In this document: positions 332 through 60,498 of the stretch, one piece after another
How positions within the stretch are numbered: the stretch's first letter is position 1
How the letters are laid out: each line of letters starts with the position of its first letter
Source of the DNA: Coriobacteriia bacterium
GTDB taxonomy: Bacteria > Actinomycetota > Coriobacteriia > WRKU01
Assembly (NCBI GenBank): GCA_009777935.1
Contig: WRKU01000002.1
Coordinates: 11,205 to 75,204, forward strand
Direction: 5' to 3'
DNA length: 64,000 nucleotides
Program-made: the position numbers and the translations under genes
The notes under the pieces: model-generated
Database searches by the model: none
What the model saw: only the letters and a program-made list of their open reading frames with translations
Told to the model about the DNA's origin: nothing

Positions 332-1849
332 ATGCGTCCCGAAACTCGACTTCTGATAAAAAATACGGGATTTAATGCCGTTGCCAAAGTAATCGCGGTC
401 GTGGTTTCTTTTGCGCTTACTCCCTGGTTACTTCGAGGTTTTGGAGAGGAGCTTTATGGCGCATGGGCTCTTTCGTTGGCAATCGTTGCGTTTGCAATCG
501 CTTTTGACTTAGGTATCAATACAATACTTACCGCTCATCTTGCTCAGGCAATCGAACGCAAAGATAGACAGAAAGTGCTCGATGAAGTACGTGCCGCCGC
601 GGTCATCTATGGCGTACTTGGCATTGTGTGCGCAGGAACGCTCGCGGTACTTGCTTTTCAAGCAGAGCATATCTTCGCCCTTTCCGGTGCAGTTGCCTAT
701 TCTTTTAAGTGGATTATGCTCATCAATGCGGCAGCTCAGGCCATATACTGGCCTTGTTCGGTGGCTTCGATAGTGTTGGTGGCGTTCCGGCGCAACGATA
801 TTACCGCTGCCATCATGAGCCTTCAGACCTTGGTGGGTGCGGCAGCACTTATTTTTGTTGTGTTTATGAATAAGGGCCCGGTTGTATTGGCGGGGTTGAC
901 TAGCCTCTTAATCGTATGTTCCGGTGCAGGTTCGGTTGTTCTTGCGTGGCATGTGTTTCGGCGTAATTTGCCGACTGTCGTGACAACGCAACAACCGCTG
1001 GTACTTGGTACTGCCGTGCGATTTCTGCTGGTTGCTTCTTTGCCCATGTTTGTTATTCAGCTCACCACGCTTGCAACTCTCGATCAAGTGGACAAGATTG
1101 CCCTTGGTGTAATGGTAGGTGGTGTCGCTGTTGCAGTATATGAAATAGGAGCCAGGTTTTCAGGAGTCATTTCCCAAGGAATTTCGTTAGCACTTTCTGC
1201 GACACTTCCTCATGTGGTAACTATTCATGAAGAGTCGTCACCTCAGCGCTCACAATCCTTTTTTCTTAACGGTACACGTTTGCTCACGACTATGTTGTTA
1301 CCCGTTATCGTCATGTTGATATGTGTTGCAGGTGCTTTGATACCGGCGTGGGTTGGTGAGGGCTATCAAAGCTCTGTTGAGGTTATGCGTATACTTTTGT
1401 TTTCGCAAATGTTACTGCCGTTTTATGCGGTAGGAAACTGGTTTCTCGTCGCCTATAAACGCTTTCGATATTGGATTTTCGTGAGCATAGTGATAGCAGT
1501 AAGCAACATTATCCTTACTATTGTGCTTATTTCCTCGATAGGCATTGTAGGGGCTGCTCTTGCAACTCTTGTGATTAGCGTTATGGACGCGCTTCTCATC
1601 GGTCTATACATCATGAAAGTACTGGACATCCGCTACCGTCCTTTTTTGCGACAGGTGTTTTGGCCAACGGTTCCGGCTCTGCTCGTTATACCGTTTCTGT
1701 GGCTGTTGTTACGCACCTATGCGTACAGTGATGGCCTCGTTTCTGTCGGCGTAGCAGGTGCGGTACTGCTCGTTGGTTTTGGCGGCATCTACTATGGGCT
1801 TATGAAGGCAGGGGCTGTTTGCGCTAGGATGAACTTATGGCACAAGTAG
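332..1849 (+). CDS. Polysaccharide/oligosaccharide flippase (Wzx-like, MOP superfamily)
   Basis: 505 aa, about 12-14 hydrophobic helices, architecture typical of O-unit flippases. Immediately followed by glycosyltransferase genes. Confidence 0.7.
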   Translation: MRPETRLLIKNTGFNAVAKVIAVVVSFALTPWLLRGFGEELYGAWALSLAIVAFAIAFDLGINTILTAHLAQAIERKDRQKVLDEVRAAAVIYGVLGIVCAGTLAVLAFQAEHIFALSGAVAYSFKWIMLINAAAQAIYWPCSVASIVLVAFRRNDITAAIMSLQTLVGAAALIFVVFMNKGPVVLAGLTSLLIVCSGAGSVVLAWHVFRRNLPTVVTTQQPLVLGTAVRFLLVASLPMFVIQLTTLATLDQVDKIALGVMVGGVAVAVYEIGARFSGVISQGISLALSATLPHVVTIHEESSPQRSQSFFLNGTRLLTTMLLPVIVMLICVAGALIPAWVGEGYQSSVEVMRILLFSQMLLPFYAVGNWFLVAYKRFRYWIFVSIVIAVSNIILTIVLISSIGIVGAALATLVISVMDALLIGLYIMKVLDIRYRPFLRQVFWPTVPALLVIPFLWLLLRTYAYSDGLVSVGVAGAVLLVGFGGIYYGLMKAGAVCARMNLWHK

Positions 1850-2643
1850 TTGAAAATCGTCCCTTGATATCGGTTATTACGGTGTGCAAGAATGCCGAAC
1901 GTACCATCGAAAGAGCATTTTATTCACTACAACGGCAAACCGATGACGGAACCGATAGTGGTCTACTGTTTGCAGACTTTGAGCATATAATTGTTGATGG
2001 GGCCTCTACCGATAGCACGAAGAGACTTATTGAACAATATAGCGAAACAGCCCAGTTTCCCGTCACCATAATCTCCGAACCCGATCAGGGGATTTACGAT
2101 GCGATGAACAAGGGATTAGCGTGTGCAAAAGGGCTGTATACCGTATTTTTGAATGCTGATGATGTCTTTACCCAAAATGCATTCGTAACGGTGGCTGATT
2201 ATGCAAAAGAATTGCCCGATTGCATCGGCGGAGACTGCGATATCGTGGACAGGAACGGCAATGCATATCTGAGAAAGTGTTTGCCGTCCATGATATCCGA
2301 GCGATATCCGCAGATCATGCCTGCCCAACACCAAGCATGGTATGTGAAGACTGATACCTTACAGATGGCGGGAGGATTTGACCAGACGTTCCCTATTGCG
2401 GCAGACTATGAATTAGCTCTGCGATTAATTGAGGATAAGGTCTCTTGGATGTTTGTGCCCCATACTGTCGCACGGTTTTATCTGGGAGGCGTAAGTTTTC
2501 AGCTTGCGCGTACGGCATGGGATTGTTTTCGGGTTCGCCGAGCGCGCAGATGGCCAATCGTTTTTGCTTCACGTCTGCTAATTTGTAACATAGTGGCATC
2601 GTATGTCAGTCGTGTGTGCGGCTATTTTGGATGGGCTCGATGA
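1837..2643 (+). CDS. Glycosyltransferase family 2
   Basis: N-terminal 'ISVITVCKNAERTIERAF...VDGASTDSTKRL...DQGIYDAMNKG' GT2 (GT-A) signature. Overlaps the flippase stop. Confidence 0.8.
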   Translation: MAQVVENRPLISVITVCKNAERTIERAFYSLQRQTDDGTDSGLLFADFEHIIVDGASTDSTKRLIEQYSETAQFPVTIISEPDQGIYDAMNKGLACAKGLYTVFLNADDVFTQNAFVTVADYAKELPDCIGGDCDIVDRNGNAYLRKCLPSMISERYPQIMPAQHQAWYVKTDTLQMAGGFDQTFPIAADYELALRLIEDKVSWMFVPHTVARFYLGGVSFQLARTAWDCFRVRRARRWPIVFASRLLICNIVASYVSRVCGYFGWAR

Positions 2644-3746
2644 CGGTCCGTGTCACATATGACTATCAGGCGTTTTCGATGCAGAAGGTTGGCGGCATCT
2701 CGCGCTATGTTGCTGAAGTTACGCATGCGCTTAAGGGGCGTTCGGGTATCGAACCTGGAGTTCCGGTTCGGTACGCCGACAATCGATATCTCGTTGAAGT
2801 CTTAAATATCCGACCGCACACCTTGTTTCATCGATATCGCGGTCGCGGATGTCGTTACGTTATGTCCTTTGGCGATTATTTCAATAAAAAGTTGGCCCTA
2901 CGTGCGCTCGAAACGATTAGCGAACCAGTGTACCATCCCACCTATTACGACCCTTACTTGTTGCCACATCTCAATCAGACACCTTTTGTTATTACAGTGC
3001 ATGATATGATTCATGAGCTTTTCCCAGATGAAGTAGCAGATCCGTGGGTTGCTCTTCATAAGGCGGTTATGATTGAACAAGCAGACCACATAATCGCGGT
3101 GAGCGAATCAACCAAGCGCGATCTCCTACAGTTTTATCCTGAGTCTGCAGGGAAGGTGACCGTCATACATCATGGAGCGAGCTTTATGCGTCGCGAGAAC
3201 AATATCGAGCCTCTTGTATCAGGGCCATATTTACTGTTTGTGGGGAGTAGAGGAGCATACAAAAACTTCAAGATGACCGTTGAAGCATATGTGCAACTAG
3301 GGGGTGAGCACCCGGATCTTTCGCTGGTATGCGCCGGTGGGGGGATATTCACCCAAGACGAACAGTATATGCTTGATGCGCGAGGCATCAGCAGTCGTGT
3401 TTATCAAATCTCTGCGACCGATACGCAGCTCGAAAGTCTTTATGCTCATGCGGCAGCATTCGTTTTTCCTTCTCACTATGAAGGTTTTGGCCTGCCCATA
3501 CTCGAAGCTATGGCGTGTGGCGCTCCCTGTGCATTGAGCAACACGAGTTCACTGCCGGAAGTCGGCGGTGATGCAGCATGTTACTTTGATCCCTGTGACG
3601 CGGATGCGCAGGCGAGAATACTTGCAGATATTTTGAGTGATAATACGCTCGCATCTGATATGCGCCATGCAGGATTTAAGCGGGCAGCAAGTTTTACCTG
3701 GGAAAAGTCAGCACGTCAGCACGAAGAGGTGTACCTCGCATTATGA
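2640..3746 (+). CDS. Glycosyltransferase family 4 (GT1 superfamily, GT-B fold)
   Basis: C-terminal 'EGFGLPILEAMACGAPCALSNTSSLPEVGGDAACYFDP' motif typical of GT4. ATGA start/stop overlap with the upstream gene at 2640. Confidence 0.8.
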   Translation: MTVRVTYDYQAFSMQKVGGISRYVAEVTHALKGRSGIEPGVPVRYADNRYLVEVLNIRPHTLFHRYRGRGCRYVMSFGDYFNKKLALRALETISEPVYHPTYYDPYLLPHLNQTPFVITVHDMIHELFPDEVADPWVALHKAVMIEQADHIIAVSESTKRDLLQFYPESAGKVTVIHHGASFMRRENNIEPLVSGPYLLFVGSRGAYKNFKMTVEAYVQLGGEHPDLSLVCAGGGIFTQDEQYMLDARGISSRVYQISATDTQLESLYAHAAAFVFPSHYEGFGLPILEAMACGAPCALSNTSSLPEVGGDAACYFDPCDADAQARILADILSDNTLASDMRHAGFKRAASFTWEKSARQHEEVYLAL

Positions 3747-4576
3747 GAGAGCGACTCCCACAACAACCGACACTATTTTTGGTAACAGCATGTCTGAACG
3801 CAGAGGCAACTATTAGTGATACGTTTGCCGTTCTCGAAGAACAGGCTGTCGAATGGGCGCACTATTTTGTGATAGACGGTGCTTCGACTGACGGAACCGT
3901 TGAGCTGGCACATCGGTTTGCTGAGGAACAAGGCGGTCGCGTCACCGTTATCTCCGAACCCGATACCGGCATCTATAGCGCCATGAACAAAGGTGTACGA
4001 CTGGCGTTAAGGCGAGCGGCTGATGACGACCTGATAGCGATTATCAACGCTGACGACTACTACGTATCGGGTGCGTTGCACACGGTGCGCGCGGCTGCAG
4101 CGCGTCATCCTGAGGTTGACATATTCTATGGCGACTGCGAACTGCTCGATGAGTGTGGAGTTTCTCGGAGACAGCGGCGCACATCAGAGCCACGCTTACC
4201 CGTGACCCCGACGTGCTTCACGATGCCTCTCGAGCATCCCACCATGTTCATGCGTGCACATGTGTATAACACGTTCGGTCTTTACGACGAATCGTATCGC
4301 ATAGCGGCAGACTACGAGTTTGTATTGCGCCTTATCGTTGCGCAGACATCGACACTTTACCTCGCCGAGCCGATAACGTATTTTCGTGAAGGTGGCATCT
4401 CGACGACGAAGATTAACGAGAGCCTCAGGGAGGCCATACGTGCCCGGATTGCGCATGGTGCGAATCCGGTGTATGAGTGGGCACGGTATGCAAAACAAAA
4501 ATTTAACGAGCAACTGTTTGCTGTTTTACGCGTCGTTCCGGGCGTGGAATGTATCTACACTGAACGATACAGGTAA
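3743..4576 (+). CDS. Glycosyltransferase family 2
   Basis: 'LFLVTACLNAEATISDTF...IDGASTDGTVELAHRF...DTGIYSAMNKG' GT2 signature. ATGA overlap with the upstream gene. Confidence 0.8.
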   Translation: MRERLPQQPTLFLVTACLNAEATISDTFAVLEEQAVEWAHYFVIDGASTDGTVELAHRFAEEQGGRVTVISEPDTGIYSAMNKGVRLALRRAADDDLIAIINADDYYVSGALHTVRAAAARHPEVDIFYGDCELLDECGVSRRQRRTSEPRLPVTPTCFTMPLEHPTMFMRAHVYNTFGLYDESYRIAADYEFVLRLIVAQTSTLYLAEPITYFREGGISTTKINESLREAIRARIAHGANPVYEWARYAKQKFNEQLFAVLRVVPGVECIYTERYR

Positions 4577-4660: not shown

Positions 4661-5536
4661 ATGACGAAAAAACTCGTCACACGAGTCGCTATGCTTGTCG
4701 GCGCAGGTATTATGGCGTTCGGGCTGGCAGGGATTGCCGTTGCCACGACGCCAGCTGAACTCTCCGAGATGCAGTACGTCGTTGCTGAGAACACGGAAGT
4801 AGGAACCAGTCTCATGACTGTGTATGGCTTTCTGCCAGACGATACCTCACTTCCGGCAACTGCACATTTCTACGCACCTTCTGACTTCTTGCTTGTCAAT
4901 GTTTTTGGGTTAACGCTTGAGGAAGATTCACGGGAAGTTGTGGTGTCGCATACGGCGACCGAGGAGGACAACGGCTTCACGCGCTATGACGTTGTTTTTA
5001 CTGAGAGCACCATGTTTATAGCGAGTTTTGTGCTTGACGCAAAGATATATGACACGACAGTGATGGGCGGTCCAAGTGCTGCTCCCATCGCTGAACTTGA
5101 GGTCCTTCCTCCAAATGACCTTGAGCTTCTTACGATTGGGTTTGTCGCTCCTGAGGGCTATGCAGGCGTGGGTCAAGGGGTGACTCAGCTGGGAACCGAT
5201 TATGATGGCAACGAAATCTACGGAATTGATTACACCAATGTTCCGGGTGATGAGGTCATTGTGGCGGTCGTCGCCTTTGGTCAACAGTTCGAACAAGTGG
5301 AGTTTAATGCAGAGAACGTAGCGTTGGCGACAGTGTGGTACGAAGAGCCGTTCACGTGGATTATGGGCGCGCTCATATTTGCTGCGGCAGGTCTTGCCGT
5401 TGTCCTCTACCTGATACTTACCTGCAAAGGCCCGTTTGCCTCACGTAGTGACGTAGGAACCCACGATGTGCAAGATTCCGATACACCAGCTAACACCGAC
5501 ACAACAACTTCCGATGAAGAAGCTTCAGCGCGTTAA
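4661..5536 (+). CDS. Uncharacterised surface protein, paralog A (N-terminal signal peptide, about 230-aa ectodomain, C-terminal TM anchor and acidic tail)
   Basis: Hydrophobic N-terminus, single C-terminal helix 'WIMGALIFAAAGLAVVLYLIL'. Shares a 'L.IGF.APEG..G.G' block with the proteins at 13668 and 14541. Confidence 0.55.
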   Translation: MTKKLVTRVAMLVGAGIMAFGLAGIAVATTPAELSEMQYVVAENTEVGTSLMTVYGFLPDDTSLPATAHFYAPSDFLLVNVFGLTLEEDSREVVVSHTATEEDNGFTRYDVVFTESTMFIASFVLDAKIYDTTVMGGPSAAPIAELEVLPPNDLELLTIGFVAPEGYAGVGQGVTQLGTDYDGNEIYGIDYTNVPGDEVIVAVVAFGQQFEQVEFNAENVALATVWYEEPFTWIMGALIFAAAGLAVVLYLILTCKGPFASRSDVGTHDVQDSDTPANTDTTTSDEEASAR

Positions 5537-5582
5537 GGATAGTATTCGACGTCGGTTAGCTGAGGATGACGCTCGGCCCCCG

Positions 5583-6527
5583 ATGACCACAGAGGACGCT
5601 AAGCGCCTTACTAAACGCTTGGCACCGTGGGTATTTCTGGCGGTGGTATTTCTGCTCTTGCTGCCCGGCGCCGTTGCGACGGTCTGGGTTCCCGCGTGTA
5701 GCTCGTGCCATGTTACCGTTGCTGAAGCAACGGCCGAGAGAGCACACGTCGATATGGCCTGCACCGACTGTCATAATACCGGAGGACGTCTCGCATACCG
5801 ACAAATCGTTATGTATAGCATGGTAACAAGGCTTGCCAATCCTTCAAATCTCGGTGCGGCAAACGTGTCTGATGAAACATGTCTCACCTGTCATGAAACG
5901 GACGTCACGCGCGGCACTACGCTGTCAAATGGCATCAATATCAGACATTCGGCATGCGCAGCAACCCTCGCATGCACAGTATGCCACTCGACGGCCGGTC
6001 ACTCGACGCCCGGCCTCCAGTATCAATACTCGATGGATCAGTGTCTCTGGTGTCATACCGACCAAATGGTCGATGCCGCCAACGAGGAAAGCTGCTACCT
6101 CTGTCATGATGGACGGTATCGATCGGTCATACCGAATAACACCTCGGCTTTTCGTATCACCCATAATGAGAACTGGCTTCGAACACACGGGCTTGGCGAT
6201 ATGAACTCTTGCCGGAGTTGCCACACAACGGAAACCTTCTGTGGCAGATGCCACGGACCACTAGTACCCCATCCTCCGACCATCCTTATGCGACATTCAG
6301 AGCCGGCGCGTGATCCGAACAATAAGTGCGACAGTTGCCATCCACAGTCGTTCTGTGACGATTGTCATGGCATGGAAATACCACATCCTGAGCGGTTCCT
6401 CCAAGAACACGCTGCCATCACCAACGAGCTTGGCGAGGACGCCTGTTATGGCTGTCATCTCACGAGCGATTGTCTGCGGTGCCATATGGCGCACATTCAT
6501 CCGGGTTGGGGGGTGTTCACGCGCTGA
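5583..6527 (+). CDS. Membrane-anchored multiheme cytochrome c with 12 CXXCH motifs (NapC/NirT-like N-terminal anchor)
   Basis: CSSCH, CTDCH, CLTCH, CTVCH, CLWCH, CYLCH, CRSCH, CGRCH, CDSCH, CDDCH, CYGCH and CLRCH were counted directly. N-terminal helix 'WVFLAVVFLLLLPGAV'. The start is uncertain: the ORF opens at 5466, with alternative ATGs at 5514 and 5583. 5583 is chosen because it lies just after the upstream stop at 5536. Confidence 0.75.
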   Translation: MTTEDAKRLTKRLAPWVFLAVVFLLLLPGAVATVWVPACSSCHVTVAEATAERAHVDMACTDCHNTGGRLAYRQIVMYSMVTRLANPSNLGAANVSDETCLTCHETDVTRGTTLSNGINIRHSACAATLACTVCHSTAGHSTPGLQYQYSMDQCLWCHTDQMVDAANEESCYLCHDGRYRSVIPNNTSAFRITHNENWLRTHGLGDMNSCRSCHTTETFCGRCHGPLVPHPPTILMRHSEPARDPNNKCDSCHPQSFCDDCHGMEIPHPERFLQEHAAITNELGEDACYGCHLTSDCLRCHMAHIHPGWGVFTR

Positions 6528-7735
6528 TGCAAGACTTTATCGATACCCTTTGGCAGATTGTCAACGTTCCCGTGCACGAAGACTCCTTTGCACAGCGGCT
6601 TGACTATCTGGCCGGTGTCATACGAAATCCGCAATCCGATGTTCCAGTTGCCATTCTGCTTTTTGCGATAGCATCACTTATTATTCTGGTAATCTTTTCT
6701 ATTGTTTTGTTAATAGTCTTAAGACTTGCGCACTCAGAGCCGACGTACGCGCTCGTTGACGCCGAGGGTAATCCTATTCGCGAGATATCGGCCGAAGAAG
6801 CTGAGAAGCGTCTCAAAGGGTCACCACTTGAAAAGGTGCAACGAACAACACGTGAGATACTCGATAAGACGGCGGCAAAGATTGCTATCAACATTATCAT
6901 ATGGGTTGGTATCGCACTCATTGTGGCGGCAATTACGGGGACGGCGACACGCTCGAATACGTTTTGTAACTCGTGCCATGAGGAAAACAATCATTCGCAA
7001 ATGCTTGCAGGCACTGCTCATGCAAATGTACTCTGCGTCGACTGCCACGAGACTGGAGGGATGGTGCAGTCTTTCACGGTGAACGTGCCAGGACGACTCG
7101 TTCATACTGCAGCGGGCTTTTTCTGGCAGTCGGGTGTGAACTACGCGTTCTTCCCGCGCGAATCGTGCTTCCGGTGTCATCCGCGTGAGAGTCTTGCTGA
7201 GACGATAATAGTCGACAACATTGCGATGCAACATGAGCCGCCCCTAGAGGCAGGGCTTACCTGTATTCAGTGCCACACTTTTAGTCCCTCACAGGAGTTT
7301 TCGTTTTCAACGCGAGGCATGCAAACGTGCTTGCGCTGTCATGATGGCGAGAACGTTAATCTGGACTGTGAAATATGTCACCGTCCTTCGTTAAGCGTTG
7401 TGCCGCGTACCGAACTCGATCCGGATACAACGGCTCAGGCACTACTCCAAGGTGTCGACTTCCAGCAAGGTTGTTATCGCTGTCACGACCCACGCCCGTG
7501 CGACGCATGCCATGGCTATCGTATACCACACGCCGAGGGCTACACGTTTCAGCCGCATGTCGATGATGCGCGGCGATATGGGTATCGAACGTGCTTAATA
7601 TGCCATTGGAAGGGGTCACCGACGGGTATTCCCACCTGCGATGATCCGGGATGTCATGGCAATATTTGGCAACTGATGGAGGTTCCCAACCCTTCCGGAC
7701 AAGTGCCCAGCCCCTCTTGGCGACGGCTCAGATAG
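6527..7735 (+). CDS. Membrane-bound multiheme cytochrome c with 9 CXXCH motifs plus one CX4CH, and two TM helices
   Basis: CNSCH, CVDCH, CFRCH, CIQCH, CLRCH, CEICH, CYRCH, CDACH, CLICH and CDDPGCH. TGATG overlap with the upstream cytochrome. Helices 'VAILLFAIASLIILVIFSIVLLIVL' and 'INIIIWVGIALIVAAITG'. Confidence 0.8.
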   Translation: MQDFIDTLWQIVNVPVHEDSFAQRLDYLAGVIRNPQSDVPVAILLFAIASLIILVIFSIVLLIVLRLAHSEPTYALVDAEGNPIREISAEEAEKRLKGSPLEKVQRTTREILDKTAAKIAINIIIWVGIALIVAAITGTATRSNTFCNSCHEENNHSQMLAGTAHANVLCVDCHETGGMVQSFTVNVPGRLVHTAAGFFWQSGVNYAFFPRESCFRCHPRESLAETIIVDNIAMQHEPPLEAGLTCIQCHTFSPSQEFSFSTRGMQTCLRCHDGENVNLDCEICHRPSLSVVPRTELDPDTTAQALLQGVDFQQGCYRCHDPRPCDACHGYRIPHAEGYTFQPHVDDARRYGYRTCLICHWKGSPTGIPTCDDPGCHGNIWQLMEVPNPSGQVPSPSWRRLR

Positions 7736-7736
7736 C

Positions 7737-9482
7737 GTGCTCGATTCTATGCGTAAATACGCTCTGGCGCTCTTCATGCTCGCGTGTTTTCTCGCGCCGG
7801 GCGCATTCCTCATCTTCACTGTTCCTCAACTTTACTACGCACAGATATGGTTCGTAATAACACCGCTTATCGGTTATGCGATATTCGCCGTATGTGCGCG
7901 TGGAGATACGGTCTTTTCAGAACGAGCACTTTTTATTACAACACTCATCGTTGGCGCAGCGCTCGTGCCGCTACTTGTGAACCCGCATATCTGGCAACAA
8001 ATTACGTTTGACATCTATGGCGAGATGCCGCTTATTTTGTGGCTGATGTATCCGCTTGTCTTTTTTATGGCATCGACGGTAAAGTTTGATTCGTCGGTTC
8101 GTCCGGGAATCTATGCGCTTGCGTACGTCGGCTTCTTGTTGATTGTGGTGGCCGGTGTTCAGCGTCTCATGATGGGCGATTGGTCGACGGTCTTTGGAAG
8201 TCGTGCATATTCGACGGTGGCGTTTGCCCCCATTCCCCTTTTGCTTCTTTACACGGCGAACCTCGACAAAGAGCACAAACCGGTGCATCTTGCGGCCGCT
8301 ATACTGGCTGTCGTCGGTGTTGCTTACTCTGGCGGCGCACTGGGTCTGTACACCGTCGCAGCTCTGCTGCTTCTTGCCGTGAGTTTTGCACCCGAGCTAC
8401 TGCAGATGCCGACGAAAGCTACCACATGGGCAAAACGAGGTGGGCGAGTCTTGCTGACGCTGTTTGTTACTGCTTCAGCCGTGGTTACCTTTGCGCCTGA
8501 CCTCGCACATACGATGCCCGATATTGCCGTGTTTTCCTCGAATGCGGTGGCGACGCGCATTCATCTCTGGGAGGCAGCGCAGAGGATGTTTCTCGCCGAA
8601 CCGTTATTCGGTTTTGGACCGGCTGGCTATCGATTCTCAGCGATACAGTTTTACGACCCTCAAATCTTTGAGTACACCATGACACTTGGCACCGACCCTA
8701 TTGCCTATAGCTCGCCGTCGCCGCACTCGCTTGCGTGGGAGGTGCTCACGAGGCTTGGCCTGTGGGGTGCTGTGCTTTTGACGGCTGCAGCGGTCGTGTG
8801 GGCTATTGATTTACGTGAAGCAATCCAAGAGAAAACGCGTAATAACCCGCGCATGTTGTTCGCTCTGTGTACGCTGGCCGCGCTTATGGCGCTCTTTGCG
8901 ACACCGTTTCATTTTGCGAGCGGCCTGCTCGTCGCGCTCTGTGCGGGATTGGCGATTGCGCCAACGGCGAGGGTGACAAAAGCGCGGGCTCCCCATTCTG
9001 CGCCGCAATCGTTGCGCTTCACGAATTTCTTGCCTGTCGCGCTTCTTGCGACAAACCTTATTCTGGTGCTTATCGGGGGATATGCGCTTTACGCACACAT
9101 CAATCTCCACACTCCTGACCCAACACCACAACACTATTTGGTACGGCTTGAGAATCTTCGTGCACGGGTGCCGGGCTATCCGTTTGCCGAGCGCGATTAT
9201 TATGAGATGCTCATCGTGACCGCTGGCGCACCACAGCAACAAGATGCTATCGCCGAAGAGATACTTACGCAAGCACCTTCGTATGTTTCGGGTTTTGGGC
9301 CAAATCTTGCATGGTATGCAGGGCTTATGCTCGATAACCTTGAGCGATGGGAAACAGACTCCGTGCGCTCTACGGATTCCGTCGTTATGGTACGCGCACT
9401 TCTCGATTGTGCAGCCGAAATAATGCCGTCGACCCCGGCGTATCTTGAGGCGCGCGAACGTTTGGCGGTTATGGTAGACTAA
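7737..9482 (+). CDS. O-antigen ligase / Wzy_C-domain membrane protein (candidate O-oligosaccharyltransferase or polymerase-ligase) with a C-terminal soluble extension
   Basis: At least 10 TM helices. 'HLWEAAQRMFLAEPLFGFGPAGY' resembles the conserved periplasmic loop of WaaL, PglL and Wzy_C proteins. Possible GTG start at 7737 or ATG at 7749. Confidence 0.55.
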   Translation: MLDSMRKYALALFMLACFLAPGAFLIFTVPQLYYAQIWFVITPLIGYAIFAVCARGDTVFSERALFITTLIVGAALVPLLVNPHIWQQITFDIYGEMPLILWLMYPLVFFMASTVKFDSSVRPGIYALAYVGFLLIVVAGVQRLMMGDWSTVFGSRAYSTVAFAPIPLLLLYTANLDKEHKPVHLAAAILAVVGVAYSGGALGLYTVAALLLLAVSFAPELLQMPTKATTWAKRGGRVLLTLFVTASAVVTFAPDLAHTMPDIAVFSSNAVATRIHLWEAAQRMFLAEPLFGFGPAGYRFSAIQFYDPQIFEYTMTLGTDPIAYSSPSPHSLAWEVLTRLGLWGAVLLTAAAVVWAIDLREAIQEKTRNNPRMLFALCTLAALMALFATPFHFASGLLVALCAGLAIAPTARVTKARAPHSAPQSLRFTNFLPVALLATNLILVLIGGYALYAHINLHTPDPTPQHYLVRLENLRARVPGYPFAERDYYEMLIVTAGAPQQQDAIAEEILTQAPSYVSGFGPNLAWYAGLMLDNLERWETDSVRSTDSVVMVRALLDCAAEIMPSTPAYLEARERLAVMVD

Positions 9483-9521
9483 GGGGTGTTTAGGACAGGT
9501 CTGAAGGTGAAAGGCGGCGCA

Positions 9522-10298
9522 ATGAGTGACGCAGATAAGCCGGTAGAAAAAGAAGTTGTAGTCGTGCGCAAGAAGCAGAAGATGTTTGATGATCCGGTGA
9601 ACCGGGTGCTTGGCGTTATTATCGCAGCACTTATCATCTGGTCGTTGGGGACGATATTAATGCTCATCTTGACCGGTGTCATTAACCTTTCCGGCGCACC
9701 ACAGAACGCCGATGATGCCGCCGTTCTCAAGTATGGGAGCGCACTCGATGCCGAAGCTGATTCGTGGCAGTGGCAGTTCTATGTGGTGACGCTTATTGAA
9801 TCGGGCAGATTGGCCGAGGCCGAAGCAGTCATCAATAGCGAAGACTTTCAGAATATCGATGTCTATCAGCATCAAGAGATTCTCTACTGTACGGCACTGC
9901 TCGAGTTCCGCCGAGGCAACTACGAAGAGGCCATCGCTCTTTATCGGCAGGTTATCGAGAAGACAAGAGAGTCGTACGAGCACATGCTCGAGACCGGTGG
10001 CGAGCACATGAACTGGGCTCTTGCTGAAGGCATATCTCCGAACTACTCCTTTGCGCTTCGCGATTTGACCGGTGCCTATATGGCGCTAGAAGAGTGGGAG
10101 TCTGCCTTGGAGACAGTGAGCCATTATCTTGAGATAAATCCTCAAGAGGCCGGTATGCTCATTGACCGCGCTCATATCAAGGAGCAACTAGGCGACTACG
10201 CCGGCGCTATAGCCGATCTTGAAATGGCGCAGGTATTCTTGCCAGAGGATGAAGAGGTTATCGAAAGTATCCAGCGTGTTGAAGGGAAACTGCAATGA
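9522..10298 (+). CDS. Tetratricopeptide-repeat protein with N-terminal TM anchor
   Basis: Single helix 'VLGVIIAALIIWSLGTILMLIL', followed by helical repeats with TPR-like spacing (e.g. 'EAIALYRQVIEK', 'GAIADLEMAQVFLPEDEE'). A ribosome-binding site (GAAAGG) lies upstream of the ATG at 9522. Confidence 0.6.
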   Translation: MSDADKPVEKEVVVVRKKQKMFDDPVNRVLGVIIAALIIWSLGTILMLILTGVINLSGAPQNADDAAVLKYGSALDAEADSWQWQFYVVTLIESGRLAEAEAVINSEDFQNIDVYQHQEILYCTALLEFRRGNYEEAIALYRQVIEKTRESYEHMLETGGEHMNWALAEGISPNYSFALRDLTGAYMALEEWESALETVSHYLEINPQEAGMLIDRAHIKEQLGDYAGAIADLEMAQVFLPEDEEVIESIQRVEGKLQ

Positions 10299-11599
10299 GC
10301 GAGGAACTAAAAGAGACACAACCGCAGAGTGTACCCCCAGCGGATTCGGATGCACAGTCACGGGTTGTTGAGATAGACGAGGCGCATGGTTCGGGCAAAA
10401 ATTCGGGTCGGGTCGCCCTTATTGTTGCTTTGATAACCTTGCTGTTCCTCATGGCGCTAGCAGCAGCCCTCCTTTTTTTCCTGACCGGTGGTCTGGGGGG
10501 TGGTGGTAGAACGGTCGCCGGTGTCACGTGGATACGGTCTATCTATGGCACCGGCCCCGAGCAGCACCAGCAGCACTCTCCCGGCGACGCACATCCGGCC
10601 CCCAGTGGCTCGCGCATGTTTGTGACCGATCAGTTCGGTATGCGTATCATCGAGTACGATCACAACGGTATGTATCACGGGTCGTTCGGTGGTCCGGACA
10701 CACTGCCGTATCCTTCGAACCTTGCCATCGCTGCCGACGGAACTAAATATATTGCGATGCAGACCCACGACAGAATCGTCATCTACGATTCGAATAACAA
10801 TCAAATTGGCGCCATCGAACTTCCCGAGTCACCGTTCTCTGTTGCCGTTAATCAAGACATGTTGCTGGTAGGTATGCGCGGAGCCTTTGGTGCTTTTGAG
10901 CTGGACGGTACTGAGATTGGATACGTCGGATCGTTTGGTAACGGCGAGTTCCAGTTCGATAATATCAGCGGCGTGGCTCTTGATAACAATAACAACGCAT
11001 ACATTGTGGATACGTTCAATAACCGTATTAGCAAGTATGATCCAGCCGGTGAACGGATATGGATTCATCGCACAGGTGTTCCGCGCAACGCAGGAATGAA
11101 CATTGCGCTTGAGGAGGATCTGGAAGTATCGCGCGAACTTTTTCCCTCTAATATGCAAATGCCCATGGGCGCTACCATCGATGCAGCCAACCGCCTCGTC
11201 ATCGTCGATATGATGGACTTCTCCATTGCGGCCTTCGATATGGAAACCGGTGAGTTCATTGATAAGTGGGGTACGTTCGGCGAGGCCGATGGCGCTCTCC
11301 ATTATCCAAACCAGATTGAGTACCATCGTGGCGAGGATGTGTTCTACATCGTTGAAACAGCGTTGGGTCGTGTACAGATTGTTTCATTGCCGGGTTCTGG
11401 CGGTGGCCTACTTACACAGTTAAATCGCAACTTGGCCGGTCCACTGGGTGCCTGCCTGTTACCGGTTCTCCTGATTATCGTCATCGCCACTGCCTATTAT
11501 GTAGCGCGTAAGATAATGAGAAAACGTGCCGAAGAAGCCGAGATTAAAGCTCAAGAGGCTCCAGAAGATACTGAGATGGGAACCAAAACGGGGGAATAA
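10295..11599 (+). CDS. NHL-repeat (six-bladed beta-propeller) protein anchored by both N- and C-terminal TM helices
   Basis: Repeated 'Y..D..N.RI..YD' blades, e.g. 'AYIVDTFNNRISKYDPAG', 'RLVIVDMMDFSIAAFD', 'VFYIVETALGRVQIV'. TM helices near residues 40-65 and 385-410. ATGA overlap at the start. Confidence 0.65.
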   Translation: MSEELKETQPQSVPPADSDAQSRVVEIDEAHGSGKNSGRVALIVALITLLFLMALAAALLFFLTGGLGGGGRTVAGVTWIRSIYGTGPEQHQQHSPGDAHPAPSGSRMFVTDQFGMRIIEYDHNGMYHGSFGGPDTLPYPSNLAIAADGTKYIAMQTHDRIVIYDSNNNQIGAIELPESPFSVAVNQDMLLVGMRGAFGAFELDGTEIGYVGSFGNGEFQFDNISGVALDNNNNAYIVDTFNNRISKYDPAGERIWIHRTGVPRNAGMNIALEEDLEVSRELFPSNMQMPMGATIDAANRLVIVDMMDFSIAAFDMETGEFIDKWGTFGEADGALHYPNQIEYHRGEDVFYIVETALGRVQIVSLPGSGGGLLTQLNRNLAGPLGACLLPVLLIIVIATAYYVARKIMRKRAEEAEIKAQEAPEDTEMGTKTGE

Positions 11600-11632: not shown

Positions 11633-11663
11633 CCAATCCGCGGTCGATTTGGTCGCGGATTGG
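11633..11663. promoter_or_regulatory. Perfect 10-bp inverted repeat CCAATCCGCG-N11-CGCGGATTGG in the AT-rich leader upstream of the secreted cytochrome
   Basis: Seen directly. It lies 34 nt downstream of the stop of the upstream gene and about 170 nt upstream of the ATG at 11835. It could be a U-less terminator hairpin or a dimeric transcription-factor operator. Confidence 0.4.
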
Positions 11664-11834: not shown

Positions 11835-13451
11835 ATGAAAAAAGTATTACTTACGCTTGCTTTGGCAGCAATGCTCGTCTTTGCATTTGCATCCGTTGCC
11901 GGAGCTAAGTATGCAGGTTATGCAATCGACGGTAACCGCGACCGCAACGAGATTAATTCCGAGACCGGAACCGTTAACTCACCACAGCCCGGCTTCCTCT
12001 CATGGGGCGGTGCTATCCGTATGCAGGATGCGAGTGGCTTTACCGCAGCTGCAACGGCACCCGGTGCACCCGGTGTTGGTAACGTGCACGGTGGCTATGC
12101 TATCGCGTCGTCTAAGTGTTTCGTCTGCCACTCTGCTCACCGCGCAGGTGTAGCAACGACACGTGCCTCACTGACCATGGGTGGCGCAGCGTGCGGTATC
12201 TGTCACACCGTATGGGGTGGCGGCGGTGCCAACAAGAAAGTTGAGTACAACCGTGACGAGATGCGTCCGCACTCGAGCGCAGACACGACCTGTCACCAGT
12301 GTCACGGTGGCGGTATCCACGGTGGTGGGGGATCTGAGTTCGCGGGTATGAACATGTTCCTCATTGGTGGCAGGGCTGACAGTCTCATCAGAGCAGAGAT
12401 TGGCGCGGACGCTGCCGATAACTCGAAGCCTAATCAGATTCCAAGTGGTCTGACAGCCGCTCGTACATGGTTTTTCGATAACGCTCCAGCATCGTCTGAT
12501 GCGTGGACCATTCCTACAGGTCTGAATCGTCAGACATGGAGTGTTGCAAAGGGTACCGTTACCGGTATGACCTGTAACCGGTCCGGATGTCACACCAACT
12601 CAGTCTTTGCTATCAATGAGTGGGGTGTTGGTGCGACGCGTAACGTTTCGAGCTCTAACCTTGGTGCAGCAATGGGCGGCACAGATACCAATACCGATCC
12701 GATTGCACACACCGGTCACATCAACCCTGGGCGCTATCGCAACACAGGTGGCGACGATTGTGCGCCGTGTCACGCCGGGAATGTATCCGCTGGCTTCCGT
12801 ATGCGCACGGTAGCGGGCTATGAAGATGCAGAACCTGTTGGTGTCGACGGTGACCGCTCGACTGCTTATGGCTGTGACCAGTGTCATGATATGGTCGGTG
12901 TTCAGACCGGTACGACCGCCTTCCCGCACGGTAACCGCGTAGCGGTATACGAGTGGGATGATAATGGTGCTGCAGTGACGACGACCTCGACGGCCGGTAA
13001 TCTCTGGATGTATGCAGGTAACATTGCTCAGATTTCTACCGTTAACTCGACCTGGTCCACCTGGCGTCAGGCCGACGGTATCACCGCACCAGCGGGCTCT
13101 CGAGTTCCCTCTCCGGTCGATCCTAGTTTCCGCGTCATTAACGGTGCGGTTGGTAGCAACAACGACGGTACTGCCAAGGACGGTGCGTGTCTGAAGTGCC
13201 ACATCACGACCGACGATGCGTCGTTCTACCATCTGGTGGGAAGCTATCCGGCAACGGTCGGTCCTGATGGATTCCGTCAGGCACTTACTCCGGCTGCTGT
13301 GGGTACCCGTCACCAGAATCGCGCTATCGGTACTTACTTTAACGCGACCACAACGACAGGCACCGCGTGGCAGAACAAGACCGTCTTTGACGGTACAAAC
13401 CTTGCCTCTGTCCGCGACAACGGTTCAGATGTTATCTGGATCTTCCGCTAG
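11835..13451 (+). CDS. Secreted Gly/Thr-rich multiheme cytochrome c with 6 CXXCH motifs plus one CX4CH
   Basis: Signal peptide 'MKKVLLTLALAAMLVFAFASVAGA'. A ribosome-binding site (AAAGGAGA) lies 7 nt upstream. Motifs: CFVCH, CGICH, CHQCH, CAPCH, CDQCH, CLKCH, CNRSGCH. No TM helix after the signal peptide. Thr-rich segments such as 'TTTSTAGN' and 'TTTTGTAW'. Confidence 0.8.
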   Translation: MKKVLLTLALAAMLVFAFASVAGAKYAGYAIDGNRDRNEINSETGTVNSPQPGFLSWGGAIRMQDASGFTAAATAPGAPGVGNVHGGYAIASSKCFVCHSAHRAGVATTRASLTMGGAACGICHTVWGGGGANKKVEYNRDEMRPHSSADTTCHQCHGGGIHGGGGSEFAGMNMFLIGGRADSLIRAEIGADAADNSKPNQIPSGLTAARTWFFDNAPASSDAWTIPTGLNRQTWSVAKGTVTGMTCNRSGCHTNSVFAINEWGVGATRNVSSSNLGAAMGGTDTNTDPIAHTGHINPGRYRNTGGDDCAPCHAGNVSAGFRMRTVAGYEDAEPVGVDGDRSTAYGCDQCHDMVGVQTGTTAFPHGNRVAVYEWDDNGAAVTTTSTAGNLWMYAGNIAQISTVNSTWSTWRQADGITAPAGSRVPSPVDPSFRVINGAVGSNNDGTAKDGACLKCHITTDDASFYHLVGSYPATVGPDGFRQALTPAAVGTRHQNRAIGTYFNATTTTGTAWQNKTVFDGTNLASVRDNGSDVIWIFR

Positions 13452-13667: not shown

Positions 13668-14480
13668 ATGATGAGACGACGTGGCATTCTTTCCGCATTC
13701 TTAGGCACAATCGTGCTTTTGGGTGTGTTAGGTATTGGCATCTCTGTGGCTGGTGCCGCGGTCTTTAATCGAATAAGCGTAATCGCTCGTCCCTACGATG
13801 CTTTTACGACCGAATACACGGTAATTGCGAGGCCGTCTGTGCACGACGCTCCGGTTGGCACCGCACAGCTTGTCTTGCCGCGCGACATCACGGTGGTTTC
13901 TGCACGCCATATCGCGGATGCCAGTAGCGTGGATGATGAGGGCGAAGCAGAATACACCGTCGAGCCACATTCGAATGGTATTGATGACGTCTACACCTTT
14001 GTTTTGGCCGATGAAGAAGGCACAAGCGGGCTTTTCGATTGGCAAGGAGTTCAGATAGTGCTCCACGCCGATGAACCGCTGTATTCTGAGACCGATGACG
14101 GTCAAATTGTGTCTTCGTTTCGATTCGTTGCACCAAACCCTCTATCAGGTCTCGAAATTGGCTTCGAGGCTCCAGCGAGGATGACAGGCAGCGGTGCTGG
14201 TGTCGTTTTGCTTGAGGAGGACGCATACGATAGGGCAGTATATGGTATTACTCGCGCAGAGAACGTGCGTGCGGATGAAGAGATTGTTGCACAGGTCGTC
14301 TTCAATCTTATTGAAGATCCTGGTCCGGCCGAAGCCGTGGCGCTTAGTGTCACTGAGTCAGTCGAAGAACATAACCGGGGCCTCATCATAGGTGCGCTCA
14401 TTGGTGCAATCATCCTTGTCGTCGTAGTCGTCGTGCTCGTTGCACGCAAGGTCAGTAAGGATAGGAAGCAGGCACAGTAG
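13668..14480 (+). CDS. Uncharacterised surface protein, paralog B (signal peptide and C-terminal TM anchor)
   Basis: Signal peptide ending 'VAGAAVF'. C-terminal helix 'LIIGALIGAIILVVVVVVLVA' followed by 'RKVSKDRKQAQ'. 'ADEPLYSETDDGQIVSSFRFV' and 'LEIGFEAPARMTGSG' align with the paralog at 14541. Confidence 0.6.
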   Translation: MMRRRGILSAFLGTIVLLGVLGIGISVAGAAVFNRISVIARPYDAFTTEYTVIARPSVHDAPVGTAQLVLPRDITVVSARHIADASSVDDEGEAEYTVEPHSNGIDDVYTFVLADEEGTSGLFDWQGVQIVLHADEPLYSETDDGQIVSSFRFVAPNPLSGLEIGFEAPARMTGSGAGVVLLEEDAYDRAVYGITRAENVRADEEIVAQVVFNLIEDPGPAEAVALSVTESVEEHNRGLIIGALIGAIILVVVVVVLVARKVSKDRKQAQ

Positions 14481-14540: not shown

Positions 14541-15311
14541 ATGAAGCGACTTGCCATCTTTATGACACTCGTAGGGGCTGTTCTACTCTTTGGCATGACG
14601 GGTTTGGGCGCAACCGAGGCTGGTGCTGCCTTCCAGCGCGTGGTCATCACCGGTTCCCCTCATGGCGATACAGCGGCCGAATACGAGGTTATTGCCCGAG
14701 TCTCGGCCCATCATCTTCCGAAGGATGCACCGAGACTTATACTTCCCGTTGATTTTGACGTAGTCGAGGTGGAGTATCTCTGGAGTGCTATGAGCCAGGG
14801 TGTGGAGCCTGAAAAGTATGCTGTTGGGCCTCATCCCGATGGGTGGGGTAACGTCTATTCGTTTAGCGTGACAGACTGGACAGGAATCCGGCTTGTGTTC
14901 CGTGTCGACGAACCACTGTATCGAGAAAACGACGACGGTGACCTTGTCTCGAGCTATTCTTTTAAAGTTGATTACGCTTTGTCCGAGCTCGTCATTGGCT
15001 TCGAGGCACCTGAGGGCATGGTTGGCACGGGCAAAGACGTTATCTTTTTGGGAGAAAGCGCGGATGATGTGCCTCTTTACGGCATCAACGTTGCGCCGGC
15101 GCGCGCAGGACAGGAAATCGTCGCCGAAGTTACCTTCACTGAACCTGAACCCGAAGTCGAACCGGGGTTCTTTGCGACTCTTAGTGCCAAGATAACCGAT
15201 CTTGCGCGCGAACATACGGTTGGATTAATCGTCGCCGTGTTGGTGGGCGGGATAGTACTTGTCGCTGCGGTTGCACTGTTCGTTGTCTGGCGAAGCCATC
15301 ACGAGAGGTGA
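14541..15311 (+). CDS. Uncharacterised surface protein, paralog C (signal peptide and C-terminal TM anchor)
   Basis: 'VDEPLYRENDDGDLVSSYSFKV' and 'LVIGFEAPEGMVGTGKDV' blocks. C-terminal helix 'LIVAVLVGGIVLVAAVALFVV' followed by 'WRSHHER'. Confidence 0.6.
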   Translation: MKRLAIFMTLVGAVLLFGMTGLGATEAGAAFQRVVITGSPHGDTAAEYEVIARVSAHHLPKDAPRLILPVDFDVVEVEYLWSAMSQGVEPEKYAVGPHPDGWGNVYSFSVTDWTGIRLVFRVDEPLYRENDDGDLVSSYSFKVDYALSELVIGFEAPEGMVGTGKDVIFLGESADDVPLYGINVAPARAGQEIVAEVTFTEPEPEVEPGFFATLSAKITDLAREHTVGLIVAVLVGGIVLVAAVALFVVWRSHHER

Positions 15312-16284: not shown

Positions 16285-16319
16285 GAGCCCCTTTCTTTCG
16301 AGAAGGGGCTCCTTCTTTT
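16285..16319. terminator. Bidirectional Rho-independent terminator between convergent genes
   Basis: GAGCCCCTT...AAGGGGCTC hairpin followed by CTTCTTTTG. It lies between the + gene ending at 16172 and the - gene ending at 16329. Confidence 0.6.
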
Positions 16320-17676: not shown

Positions 17677-18771
17677 ATGTCCAAGCGCAATGTAGCACTC
17701 ATCACCGGCATCACTGGCCAGGATGGTGCATACCTCGCCGAGTTTCTGCTTGATAAAGGCTATGAGGTCCACGGCATCAAGCGTCGTTCTTCGAGCTTCA
17801 ACACACAACGTATCGACCATCTTTACCAAGACCCGCACGAATCCGACGTACACTTTCATCTCCACTACGGAGATTTGACCGATTCGGCCAACCTTATCCG
17901 CCTCATCAGCGAAATCAAGCCTAACGAAATCTATAACCTTGGTGCACAGTCGCACGTGCAGGTTAGTTTTGAGACGCCCGAATACACCGCCGATGTCGAC
18001 GCACTCGGTGCTCTGCGCATCCTCGAGGCCATCCGTATCCTTGGCCTTGAGCAGACGACGCGGTTTTACCAGGCCTCAAGCAGTGAGCTATTCGGCAAGG
18101 TCATTGAGATGCCGCAGCGCGAGACGACGCCGTTTTATCCACGCAGCCCGTACGCTGTCGCCAAGCTCTTTGCGTACTGGACTGCCGTTAACTATCGCGA
18201 AGCATACGGCATCTACGCCTGTAACGGTATTCTTTTCAATCACGAGTCGCCCCTGCGCGGTGAGACGTTTGTGACGCGCAAAATTACGCGCTCGGCCGCT
18301 CGCATCGCGCTCGGCATGCAAGACATGCTCTATCTGGGCAACCTCAATGCACAGCGCGATTGGGGCTACGCTGGCGATTACGTCGAACTCATGTGGCTGA
18401 TGTTGCAACAAGACGAACCCGACGATTACGTAATGGCGACCGGCGTGACGACCTCGGTACGCGACTTCTGCACGGCTGCGTTTCAGCGGGCCGGTATCGA
18501 GCTTCGCTGGGAGGGCGAGGGCATCGCTGAGCGTGGTATCGACAGCGCGACTAACCGTACCGTCGTTACCGTTGACGAGCACTACTTCCGCCCGGCAGAG
18601 GTCGACATGCTGTGTGGTGACGCGACCAAGGCACGAGAGAAGCTTGGCTGGGAGCCGAAGACCACGCTAGAAGAGCTGACCGCGTGTATGGTCGATGCCG
18701 ACCTCGAAGAGGCACGGCGTGAACGCCACCTGCGCGATGGCGGTTTCGAGACATACGAGCCGTGCGAGTAG
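17677..18771 (+). CDS. gmd: GDP-mannose 4,6-dehydratase
   Basis: '[44 protein letters not shown]...[26 protein letters not shown]' is near-canonical Gmd. Confidence 0.9.
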
Positions 18772-19730
18772 CGGACAAGATATTCGTCGCCGGGCACAAC
18801 GGGCTCGTTGGCTCGGCAATTGTGCGCGAGCTTACGCGGTGTGGCTACACGAACCTCGTAACCGCAACGCATGCCGAGCTCGATTTAACCAATCAAGTCG
18901 AAACCTGTGCTTTTTTCGAGCATGAACGCCCCGCTTACGTCTTTCTTGCCGCGGCGAAGGTCGGCGGTATCGGCGCGAATGCGGCCGAGCCGGCTCCATT
19001 CATCCACGATAACCTCGCCATTGCGCTCAACGTCATCGATGCAGCGTATCGCACTGGCGTCACCAAGCTCTGTAACCTCGGCTCTTCGTGTATCTATCCG
19101 CGTGACGCTGCACAGCCTATGGCCGAGGCAGCGTTGCTTACCGGACCGCTCGAGCCGACGAACGAGCCATACGCTATCGCCAAAATCGCCGCCATCAAGC
19201 TGTGCGAGGCGTACAACCGCCAATACGGCACCGACTTTATCTCGCTCATGCCGACGAATCTCTACGGTCCGGGCGACAACTACGACCTCACGACGAGCCA
19301 CGTGCTACCCGCGATGATTGCACGTTTCGATGACGCCAAGCGCACGGGAGCCAAAACTGTGACGCTATGGGGCGATGGTACGCCACAGCGTGAGTTTCTC
19401 TACGTCGACGATTTGGCCAACGCAGCCGTCTTCTTGATGGAACGCCATACCGCTGCTGAGCTCGGCGCATGGATTAACGTTGGCTCGGGCGAGGAGGTCA
19501 CCATCGCCGAGCTTGCGAATCTTATATGCGCGACAATATTTACTGATGGCATGAGCTCGGGCGGCCCCGCCGCACCTCCCACCATCGAGTGGGATGCTAC
19601 CAAGCCAAACGGCACGCCGCGCAAGCTTCTCGATTCCACGCGGCTTACCGGCCTTGGCTGGCAACCCAAGACGACGCTCGCCGACGGTCTTGCCGCAACG
19701 TACGCTGCTTATCTCAAGGATCGTCCATGA
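18762..19730 (+). CDS. fcl: GDP-L-fucose synthase (GDP-4-keto-6-deoxymannose 3,5-epimerase/4-reductase)
   Basis: '[28 protein letters not shown]...' short-chain dehydrogenase fold, 322 aa, immediately after gmd. Confidence 0.9.
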
Positions 19731-51111: not shown

Positions 51112-51123
51112 CAGGTATTCATT

Positions 51124-52498: not shown

Positions 52499-52500
52499 CC

Positions 52501-56763: not shown

Positions 56764-56765
56764 CG

Positions 56766-60390: not shown

Positions 60391-60498
60391 ATAATGGCAC
60401 TGCCCTCTCATGTTTTTGGCTACCATCTGCGTGTGTGTACAAGTCTTTATTTTATCATATCGGCTATAATGCTCGTACGGACCCTAAGGGGAGAAGAC

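Follow-up and report, generated by a model that had tools for sequence, protein, structure and literature searches.

A WaaL-fold membrane protein encoded in a multiheme cytochrome module of a Coriobacteriia bacterium: a possible protein O-oligosaccharyltransferase

Introduction

How multiheme cytochromes are placed across the wall of thick-walled bacteria that have no outer membrane is poorly understood. A stretch of 64,000 nucleotides from a Coriobacteriia bacterium (GenBank assembly GCA_009777935.1, contig WRKU01000002.1, positions 11,205 to 75,204 of the forward strand), below called the window and numbered from its first letter, poses a more specific question: what is the role of a polytopic protein of the O-antigen-ligase (Wzy_C) type when its gene is found among genes for such cytochromes? 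A sequence-only reading of the window had pointed out this gene and a gene for a transmembrane-anchored tetratricopeptide repeat (TPR) protein lying between cytochrome genes, and both open reading frames were recovered there in the present analysis.

The answer we prefer is that the Wzy_C protein would be a protein O-oligosaccharyltransferase acting on the proteins of a cytochrome module, most plausibly on the secreted cytochrome cytC. We give this reading a probability of roughly 0.45. It builds on the fold and topology of the protein, on invariant residues in its outer loop, on the operon-like packing of its gene and on a gene order which is conserved in related loci. More generally, the genes suggest that a dedicated enzyme probably puts sugars on the cytochromes or on what surrounds them.

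The Wzy_C protein

The 581-amino-acid product of the gene at 7737-9482 is 100% identical to MCL2024301.1, which is named "O-antigen ligase family protein [Coriobacteriia bacterium]" at NCBI. Hydropathy and a structure model indicate approximately 13 transmembrane helices. With the N-terminus inside, a large loop formed by amino acids 257-335 and a C-terminal TPR-like tail formed by amino acids 447-581 face outward. The protein has the multi-helix membrane core and the large extracytoplasmic loop of the WaaL fold, and in a fold search the nearest solved structure was that of WaaL, a lipid-acceptor ligase. Its fold places the protein in the WaaL/Wzy_C superfamily. Searches of the PDB sequences with the protein itself and with a nine-sequence profile gave chance matches only and no match to WaaL. 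Against the Pfam family Wzy_C (PF04932) the protein scores 24.3 bits (E 2.9e-5) and misses the gathering score of 31.7 bits; the module-linked Wzy_C proteins of two related loci, L011 and L012, score 58 bits (the loci retrieved by searches with Wzy_C or with the cytochromes are numbered L001 to L048).

The motif "HLWEA...FGFGPAGY", which had been taken as the sign of an O-antigen-ligase-type loop, is present at amino acids 276-298, that is within the outer loop, but its histidine is variable among the relatives and it is other residues which are invariant: R274, W278, G292, G294, P295 and H330. R274 and H330 are unchanged in an alignment of 20 diverse relatives. They provide the conserved outer-loop arginine and histidine known from E. 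coli WaaL as R288 and H337; hhalign places R274 on R288 ("GARLAMY") and H330 on H337 ("HLHNE"), in a weak match with a probability of 14%.

A word-indexed search found only four orthologs, with approximately 35% identity, and an exhaustive profile search found 81 representatives of the subfamily at E<=1e-10 among 1.84 billion. The subfamily to which the window protein belongs is thus rare.

The cytochrome module and its conservation

The Wzy_C gene is part of a co-directional series, in which the following features were found:

4661-5536, + strand: par1, exported (signal peptide), anchored in the membrane by its C-terminal end, no known domain, paralog of par2 and par3
5466-6527, + strand: cytA, membrane-anchored 12-heme cytochrome with an NrfH/NapC-like N-terminal part (12 CXXCH motifs, one transmembrane helix, Pfam cytochrome families)
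6470-7735, + strand: cytB, membrane-anchored NapC/NirT-like cytochrome (nine CXXCH motifs and one CX3-4CH motif)
7737-9482, + strand: WaaL-fold (Wzy_C) polytopic putative enzyme, 581 amino acids (Pfam, topology, conserved loop residues, fold search)
9486-10298, + strand: transmembrane-anchored TPR protein, 270 amino acids, TPR domain extracellular (Pfam, topology)
10295-11599, + strand: NHL beta-propeller protein with a transmembrane helix at both the N- and the C-terminus (Pfam, topology)
11835-13451, + strand: cytC, secreted cytochrome with approximately six hemes (M63, at 11835, is the likely start within an open reading frame opening at 11649)
13668-14480 and 14541-15311, + strand: par2 and par3, paralogs of par1 (sequence comparison)
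16285-16311, + strand: terminator-like hairpin of 10 pairs followed by a T-run, which ends the co-directional series (consensus match)

The packing is tight. The Wzy_C gene begins after a spacer of 1 bp behind cytB, the TPR gene after a spacer of 3 bp behind Wzy_C, and the TPR and NHL genes overlap by 4 bp; with cytC 3' of the NHL gene, the Wzy_C and TPR genes sit between multiheme cytochrome genes. It should be noted that a scan for promoters and terminators gave site counts that were not above those of shuffled sequence, the hairpin at 16285 being the sole strong terminator-like site. The family profile of cytA matches NrfH (2j7a_C, E 8.8e-8), a cytochrome of the quinol dehydrogenase type. 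Orthologs of cytB have 10-12 CXXCH motifs and start at the equivalent of M20, and the likely true start of cytB is the ATG at 6527. These genes suggest that a conserved extracellular electron transfer module of a single-membrane bacterium is encoded in the window.

To retrieve loci from the cytochrome side, scans were made with alignments of cytB and cytA, and a locus was called informative when at least 0.8 kb beyond cytB was present. A Wzy_C gene lies no more than 2.4 kb from the cytA-cytB pair in 11 of the 14 informative loci, and in six or more of these 11 the gene begins no further than 31 bp from where cytB stops; counting the window, at least seven loci have the start 1-31 bp after that stop. 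The exceptions are L008, where leucine genes come next, L041, where a radical-SAM-like gene comes next, and L020. Seen from the Wzy_C side, six out of seven close relatives adjoin genes for multiheme cytochromes (L001, L004, L005, L006, L045 and L048). The seventh, in L046, has a LeuA-like fragment upstream and almost no sequence downstream.

The position next to the cytochromes is filled by at least three divergent Wzy_C lineages. The first is that of the window; the second consists of Wzy_C-TPR fusions, found in L011, L012, L033 and L036 and as reversed paralogs in L001, L004 and L006; the third is the type of L037 and L039. In some loci (L019, L037 and L039) no glycosyltransferase genes adjoin, an arrangement comparable with that of pilO/tfpO next to pilA. 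The link between the Wzy_C gene and the cytochromes, claimed from the window alone by the sequence-only reading, is borne out by the two counts (11/14 and 6/7 loci) and by the three lineages. The association seems to be real and selected, as judged from counts that are phylogenetically non-independent. One of the loci is labelled Eubacteriales and not Coriobacteriia, and the taxonomy of the bins calls for caution.

It could be argued that such a neighbourhood is simply inherited, an envelope-glycan gene bordering a cytochrome island in a set of uncultured lineages related to each other, without any functional coupling between the two. This would agree with the character of the window, which is one long cell-envelope glycan region, with the phylogenetic relatedness of the loci, and with L020, L008 and L041, which have cytochromes without a Wzy_C gene nearby. 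However, the cytochromes are mostly only 33-45% identical between loci (L020 apart) and the gene order is otherwise shuffled, yet the Wzy_C gene stays by cytA and cytB. That three different lineages take the position, and that the distance to cytB is so short in the seven or more loci mentioned above, is also at variance with mere inheritance, which we consider improbable.

Some further genes were seen beside the cytochromes of related loci. The radical-SAM-like gene directly after cytB in L041 (L041:1820-3510) was judged by sequence motif; a 590-amino-acid reverse reading frame at the same place, in which Pfam found nothing, was rejected as an antisense artefact of GC-rich DNA. In L039 a B12-binding radical SAM protein (Pfam; L039:12084-13871) is encoded approximately 4.5 kb downstream of the cytochrome pair. 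Fusions of a polytopic part (approximately six transmembrane helices) with a spermine/spermidine-synthase-like domain are a recurrent companion of the module: they follow cytB directly in L033 (12036-13802) and L036 (12319-13821) and stand beside the TPR-NHL pair in L019 (16742-18256), and tblastn found no homolog of them in the window.

The three par proteins share a signal peptide, a domain of about 200 amino acids, a C-terminal transmembrane helix and a short charged tail, and none of them matches a Pfam or NCBIfam family. Homologs adjoin the module at L019:6882-7790, L020:9139-10017 and L048:2718-3524. Because of this recurrence at three other loci the par proteins appear to be an accessory part of the module in some lineages.

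Protein or polysaccharide as acceptor

The two main alternatives for the function of the Wzy_C protein both require a glycan, and genes for making one lie directly before the cytochrome genes:

332-1849, + strand: Wzx-type flippase (Pfam Polysacc_synt, E 6.5e-11)
1837-2643, + strand: family 2 glycosyltransferase (GT2), by homology to Pfam-annotated genes of related loci
2616-3746, + strand: family 4 glycosyltransferase (GT4), by the same homology
3743-4576, + strand: GT2, by the same homology

This block (332-4576) is 3 kb upstream of the Wzy_C gene and on the same strand, and from it through the module there is no strong terminator-like site until 16285. The claim that the Wzy_C gene belongs to the cytochrome operon rather than to the glycosyltransferase genes was therefore right in its first half and overstated in its second.

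In the model we favour, the neighbouring GT2 and GT4 enzymes would build a glycan on undecaprenyl diphosphate, and the Wzx-type flippase would turn the lipid-linked glycan to the outer face of the membrane, where the Wzy_C enzyme would transfer it to a protein of the module. The outward TPR-like tail would hold the acceptor, with cytC as the most plausible target, and the separate TPR protein and the NHL propeller might together help to assemble or scaffold the cytochromes. The lipid-linked donor, the protein nature of the acceptor and its identity are what we infer here from genes and gene order.

In the competing model the Wzy_C protein would be either a polymerase of the Wzy type or a ligase with a lipid or cell-wall acceptor, and the polymer it makes would form a matrix which holds or orients the cytochromes in the thick wall. 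The link of the gene to the cytochromes would be real, but no protein would be glycosylated. The flippase and glycosyltransferase genes on the same strand are what such a model needs. In four loci (L001, L004, L005 and L010) a GT2-GT2-deacetylase/flippase-GT2-GT4 block comes directly after the ortholog, just as it would after the gene of a Wzy polymerase; the nearest solved structure is that of a lipid-acceptor ligase; one of the related loci, L020, does without the gene; and one canonical arginine of WaaL is missing from the protein. There is also a precedent in Geobacter, where an extracellular polysaccharide network (Xap) is needed to anchor cytochromes, according to the account of Rollefson (2011) given in PMC5585712. 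Other observations fit the polymer model less well. Among the scanned open reading frames of the 64-kb window (beyond 16 kb, those of 150 amino acids or more) there is no Wzz/PCP or LCP domain, and the adjacency to the cytochromes is kept in L019, L037 and L039, where no glycosyltransferase genes adjoin. An outward-facing TPR-like tail is not typical of Wzy polymerases. Finally, the extra Wzy_C paralogs of several loci could be the polymerase. We regard the polymer model as possible without being likely.

A protein acceptor is favoured because the Wzy_C gene follows the cytochromes even without glycosyltransferase genes nearby, because the protein carries a domain of a protein-binding type, as predicted O-oligosaccharyltransferases of surface-layer (S-layer) proteins do, because the extra paralogs could take over polymerisation where they exist, and because neither a Wzz nor an LCP gene was found among the open reading frames scanned. 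To this can be added that the extracellular cytochromes of Geobacter are glycosylated and that glycosylation islands lie by the OmcE cluster.

A number of observations weigh against the O-oligosaccharyltransferase model, and some of them have been touched upon above. The position of the ortholog at the head of a glycosyltransferase/flippase block in four loci is one. Another comes from L020, the nearest relative of the window with 66-67% nucleotide identity and the same gene order: it retains all the cytochromes and the TPR and NHL genes, and there is neither a Wzy_C gene nor a remnant of one. In its place L020 has a spacer of 189 bp between cytB and the TPR gene (12111-12300) with a promoter-like TTGACA-17-TATAAT pair. 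Because the cytochromes, TPR and NHL are kept without it, Wzy_C appears to be either dispensable in L020 or encoded elsewhere. The retrieved loci are mutually related, so the locus counts are not numbers of independent events. Two more distant members of the subfamily, in L044 and L047, are not beside cytochromes; the one in L044 adjoins wall enzymes and a Kelch/fn3 protein. At the residue level, the equivalent of R215 in the "TxTR" motif of E. coli WaaL is a glycine in the window subfamily ("AYSGGALG"), whereas Wzy_C paralogs at the same loci retain "T(L/N/A)TR", and the hhalign support for E. coli WaaL is weak, as stated above. Wzy_C-TPR fusions are frequent and mostly uncharacterised, and the evidence for a transfer of glycan to cytochromes consists of genes and synteny.

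The missing R215 equivalent also allows for a model without catalysis, in which an altered or inactive WaaL-fold protein serves the cytochromes as a scaffold or chaperone in the membrane. The arginine is absent from every member of the subfamily, and the Pfam score is below threshold. R274, H330 and the GxGP motif are on the other hand invariant across distant relatives, as is characteristic of an active site that has been kept, and this makes the scaffold model very improbable in our view.

The O-oligosaccharyltransferase model can be extended. The module might be the single-membrane counterpart of a glycosylated cytochrome nanowire or wall-spanning conduit, in which cytC would polymerise or stack through the wall, the glycan would be needed for crossing the peptidoglycan or for being anchored in it, and the rare subfamily of the window protein would be the first dedicated cytochrome O-oligosaccharyltransferase. 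In this extended form we find the model unlikely.

The locus L047 has one more feature of interest. Its distant Wzy_C relative (P0054, in the region L047:1-18019) comes directly after a heme-biosynthesis operon (GlutR, PBG deaminase, HEM4, ALAD, radical SAM/SPASM) and precedes genes for a UDP-GlcNAc 2-epimerase, a GT2 and several PMT/PMT_2 glycosyltransferases of the GT-C type. The surroundings are heme-related and without cytochrome genes.

The secreted cytochrome, the TPR protein and the NHL propeller

The only fully secreted cytochrome of the module is cytC. It has the highest content of serine plus threonine in the module and the module's only segment rich in S/T/A/P/G, and because of these properties it is the most plausible glycan acceptor, as a candidate for which the evidence is weak. 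The N-terminus of the mature protein is KYAGYA. An AlphaFold2 (AF2) model made from an alignment of 61 sequences has a predicted local distance difference test (pLDDT) value of 54, which is too poor for a fold search, and a sequence search gave no credible relative of cytC in the PDB and no detectable homology to OmcE or OmcS. A match to the CFA/I fimbrial subunit B, made up of recurring domain hits (E ~3) within low-complexity sequence, was rejected as chance.

The family of cytC comprises 91 homologs, mostly from metagenome-assembled genomes of Coriobacteriia and Actinomycetes and often with several on one contig. The members share the mature N-terminus KYAGY and a CX4CH motif (C309-C314-H315) alongside five CXXCH motifs, and they have variable loops rich in S/T/N/G.

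The TPR protein has one N-terminal transmembrane helix (amino acids 44-62) and an outward TPR domain, recognised by Pfam TPR_14 (E 3e-12) and other TPR models. Its family is coherent and single-copy, with a cytoplasmic "DPVVR" motif, the transmembrane helix and then "PRT". The sequence-only reading had treated this protein as a companion of Wzy_C. This is not upheld: in every locus, including L020, the TPR gene is directly upstream of the NHL gene, and L020, which has no Wzy_C, has two TPR-NHL pairs, the second at 18709-20897. The idea that the TPR protein is a split-off copy of the tail of Wzy_C, or of the TPR part of the L011 fusion, was also rejected, as BLASTP gave no significant similarity. 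Because of the constant pairing with NHL and the lack of similarity to the Wzy_C tail, the TPR protein seems to be a part of the cytochrome module and not a transferase-specific subunit. A CcmI/CycH-like signature (PF23914) is found in three of 13 members of the family (best E 5e-15) and is no more than a lead; with 18 bits, the protein of the window stays below the cut-off of 42.

Other glycan genes of the window

Three more genes bear on the kind of sugar that might be involved:

19589-21553, + strand: PglF-like membrane-anchored UDP-sugar 4,6-dehydratase (domain scan)
21550-22866, + strand: DegT aminotransferase, overlapping the PglF-like gene (domain scan)
50404-51111: hexapeptide-repeat acetyltransferase, 28 kb from the PglF-like/DegT pair (domain scan)

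The PglF-like/DegT pair flanks the module also in L011 and L034, and a PglF-like dehydratase without DegT does so in L012 (together with a PglC-like Bac_transf gene), L036 and L001. Because of this recurrence there is some support for a reducing-end sugar of the 4-amino-6-deoxy-hexosamine type. The three genes had been put forward as the trio for a bacillosamine-type sugar. All three exist, but they do not form one unit. The distant acetyltransferase is grouped with a second DegT gene (52501) and a GFO/IDH/MocA oxidoreductase gene (53600, - strand) within 50404-54550, and this group resembles the WbpB/E/D type of set, which serves 2,3-diacetamido sugars, rather than PglD.

Apart from these genes the window forms one large region of envelope-glycan genes, with pathways for GDP-mannose and dTDP-rhamnose, many GT4 and GT2 genes, an ABC exporter and wall hydrolases. 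The scanned open reading frames include neither a second Wzy_C nor an initiating phosphoglycosyltransferase. At 55303-58217 (- strand) an MBOAT membrane acyltransferase is encoded beside an AlgX-like SGNH protein; the two resemble the pairs that O-acylate polysaccharides, of the AlgI/AlgX or DltB type. Two large wall-associated proteins with five to six GBS_Bsp-like repeats are encoded at 37120-40875 and 58264-60426, one of 1251 amino acids with Amidase_3 and glucosaminidase domains, the other of 720 amino acids (- strand) with a transglutaminase-like core. The genes at 45366-46736 and 51008-52498 code for paralogous polytopic proteins which belong to no Pfam family (a weak DUF2142 match) and end in "PRYLYYN". 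A similar protein of 480 amino acids ("PRYLYP") is encoded just upstream of the distant Wzy_C relative of L044 (L044:6414-7856), and the "PRYLYYN" proteins may be transferases of the GT-C type.

Significance

Neither the class of enzyme nor the notion that extracellular cytochromes carry glycans is new. What appears to be new is that a rare WaaL-fold subfamily is devoted to a module of multiheme cytochromes in single-membrane bacteria. The cytochrome filaments of Geobacter are known to be glycosylated, and the literature searched names no enzyme responsible; a WaaL-fold subfamily genetically locked to a cytochrome module is a concrete and testable candidate for such a task. If the protein is a protein glycosylase, the range of O-oligosaccharyltransferases would be extended to respiratory cytochromes, and its gene would be a marker for spotting the electron-transfer module in metagenomes. 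If it is a polysaccharide enzyme only, it would be an ordinary envelope gene in an unusual location.

Comparison with known systems

The structurally closest system is WaaL of Cupriavidus metallidurans (PDB 7TPG/7TPJ) and E. coli, to which the window protein has approximately 13% sequence identity. It differs from WaaL in having an extra transmembrane helix and the outward TPR-like tail and in lacking the R215 equivalent. Its host has a single membrane and hence no lipid A-core acceptor, and its gene is in a cytochrome operon.

In the predicted S-layer O-oligosaccharyltransferases WsfB of Paenibacillus alvei and WsaB/WsaA of Geobacillus stearothermophilus, the Wzy_C core is accompanied by a TPR part, either in the same chain or in a small protein encoded alongside (PMC2943079). 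The window protein resembles WsfB, PglL and WsaA/WsaB in this combination, a likeness of architecture. As with WsfB, WsaB, PglL and PilO, the gene is near genes for exported proteins, but the candidate acceptors are cytochromes here and not S-layer proteins or pilins. In contrast to WsaA/WsaB, the neighbouring TPR gene is paired with the NHL propeller and not with the transferase.

Among the cytochrome systems, OmcS and OmcE filaments are glycosylated (PMC9473688), and behind the OmcE clusters of Desulfuromonadia there are often GT2/GT4 genes together with genes for sugar modification, for exporters and for TPR proteins (bioRxiv 10.1101/2025.10.22.684050). A Wzy_C-type enzyme is not mentioned in the latter paper (terms "ligase" and "oligosaccharyl"), and our literature search found no paper joining "O-antigen ligase" with "multiheme" or "NHL". 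No homology of the cytochrome cytC to OmcE or OmcS was detected, and there is no beta-barrel protein in the window module, as expected with one membrane. In composition the OmcE cluster and the window module are parallel: an OmcE cluster encodes a pair of multiheme cytochromes, proteins with beta-propellers and a cytochrome subunit that is secreted. In the Gram-positive Dethiobacter alkaliphilus, gene clusters for electron-transfer multihemes also encode NHL and TPR proteins, for which a role in the secretion and orientation of the cytochromes has been proposed (PMC10376724, which mentions no glycan enzyme under "ligase", "glycos" or "polysaccharide"). By gene content, these clusters and the window module both combine NHL and TPR proteins with multihemes.

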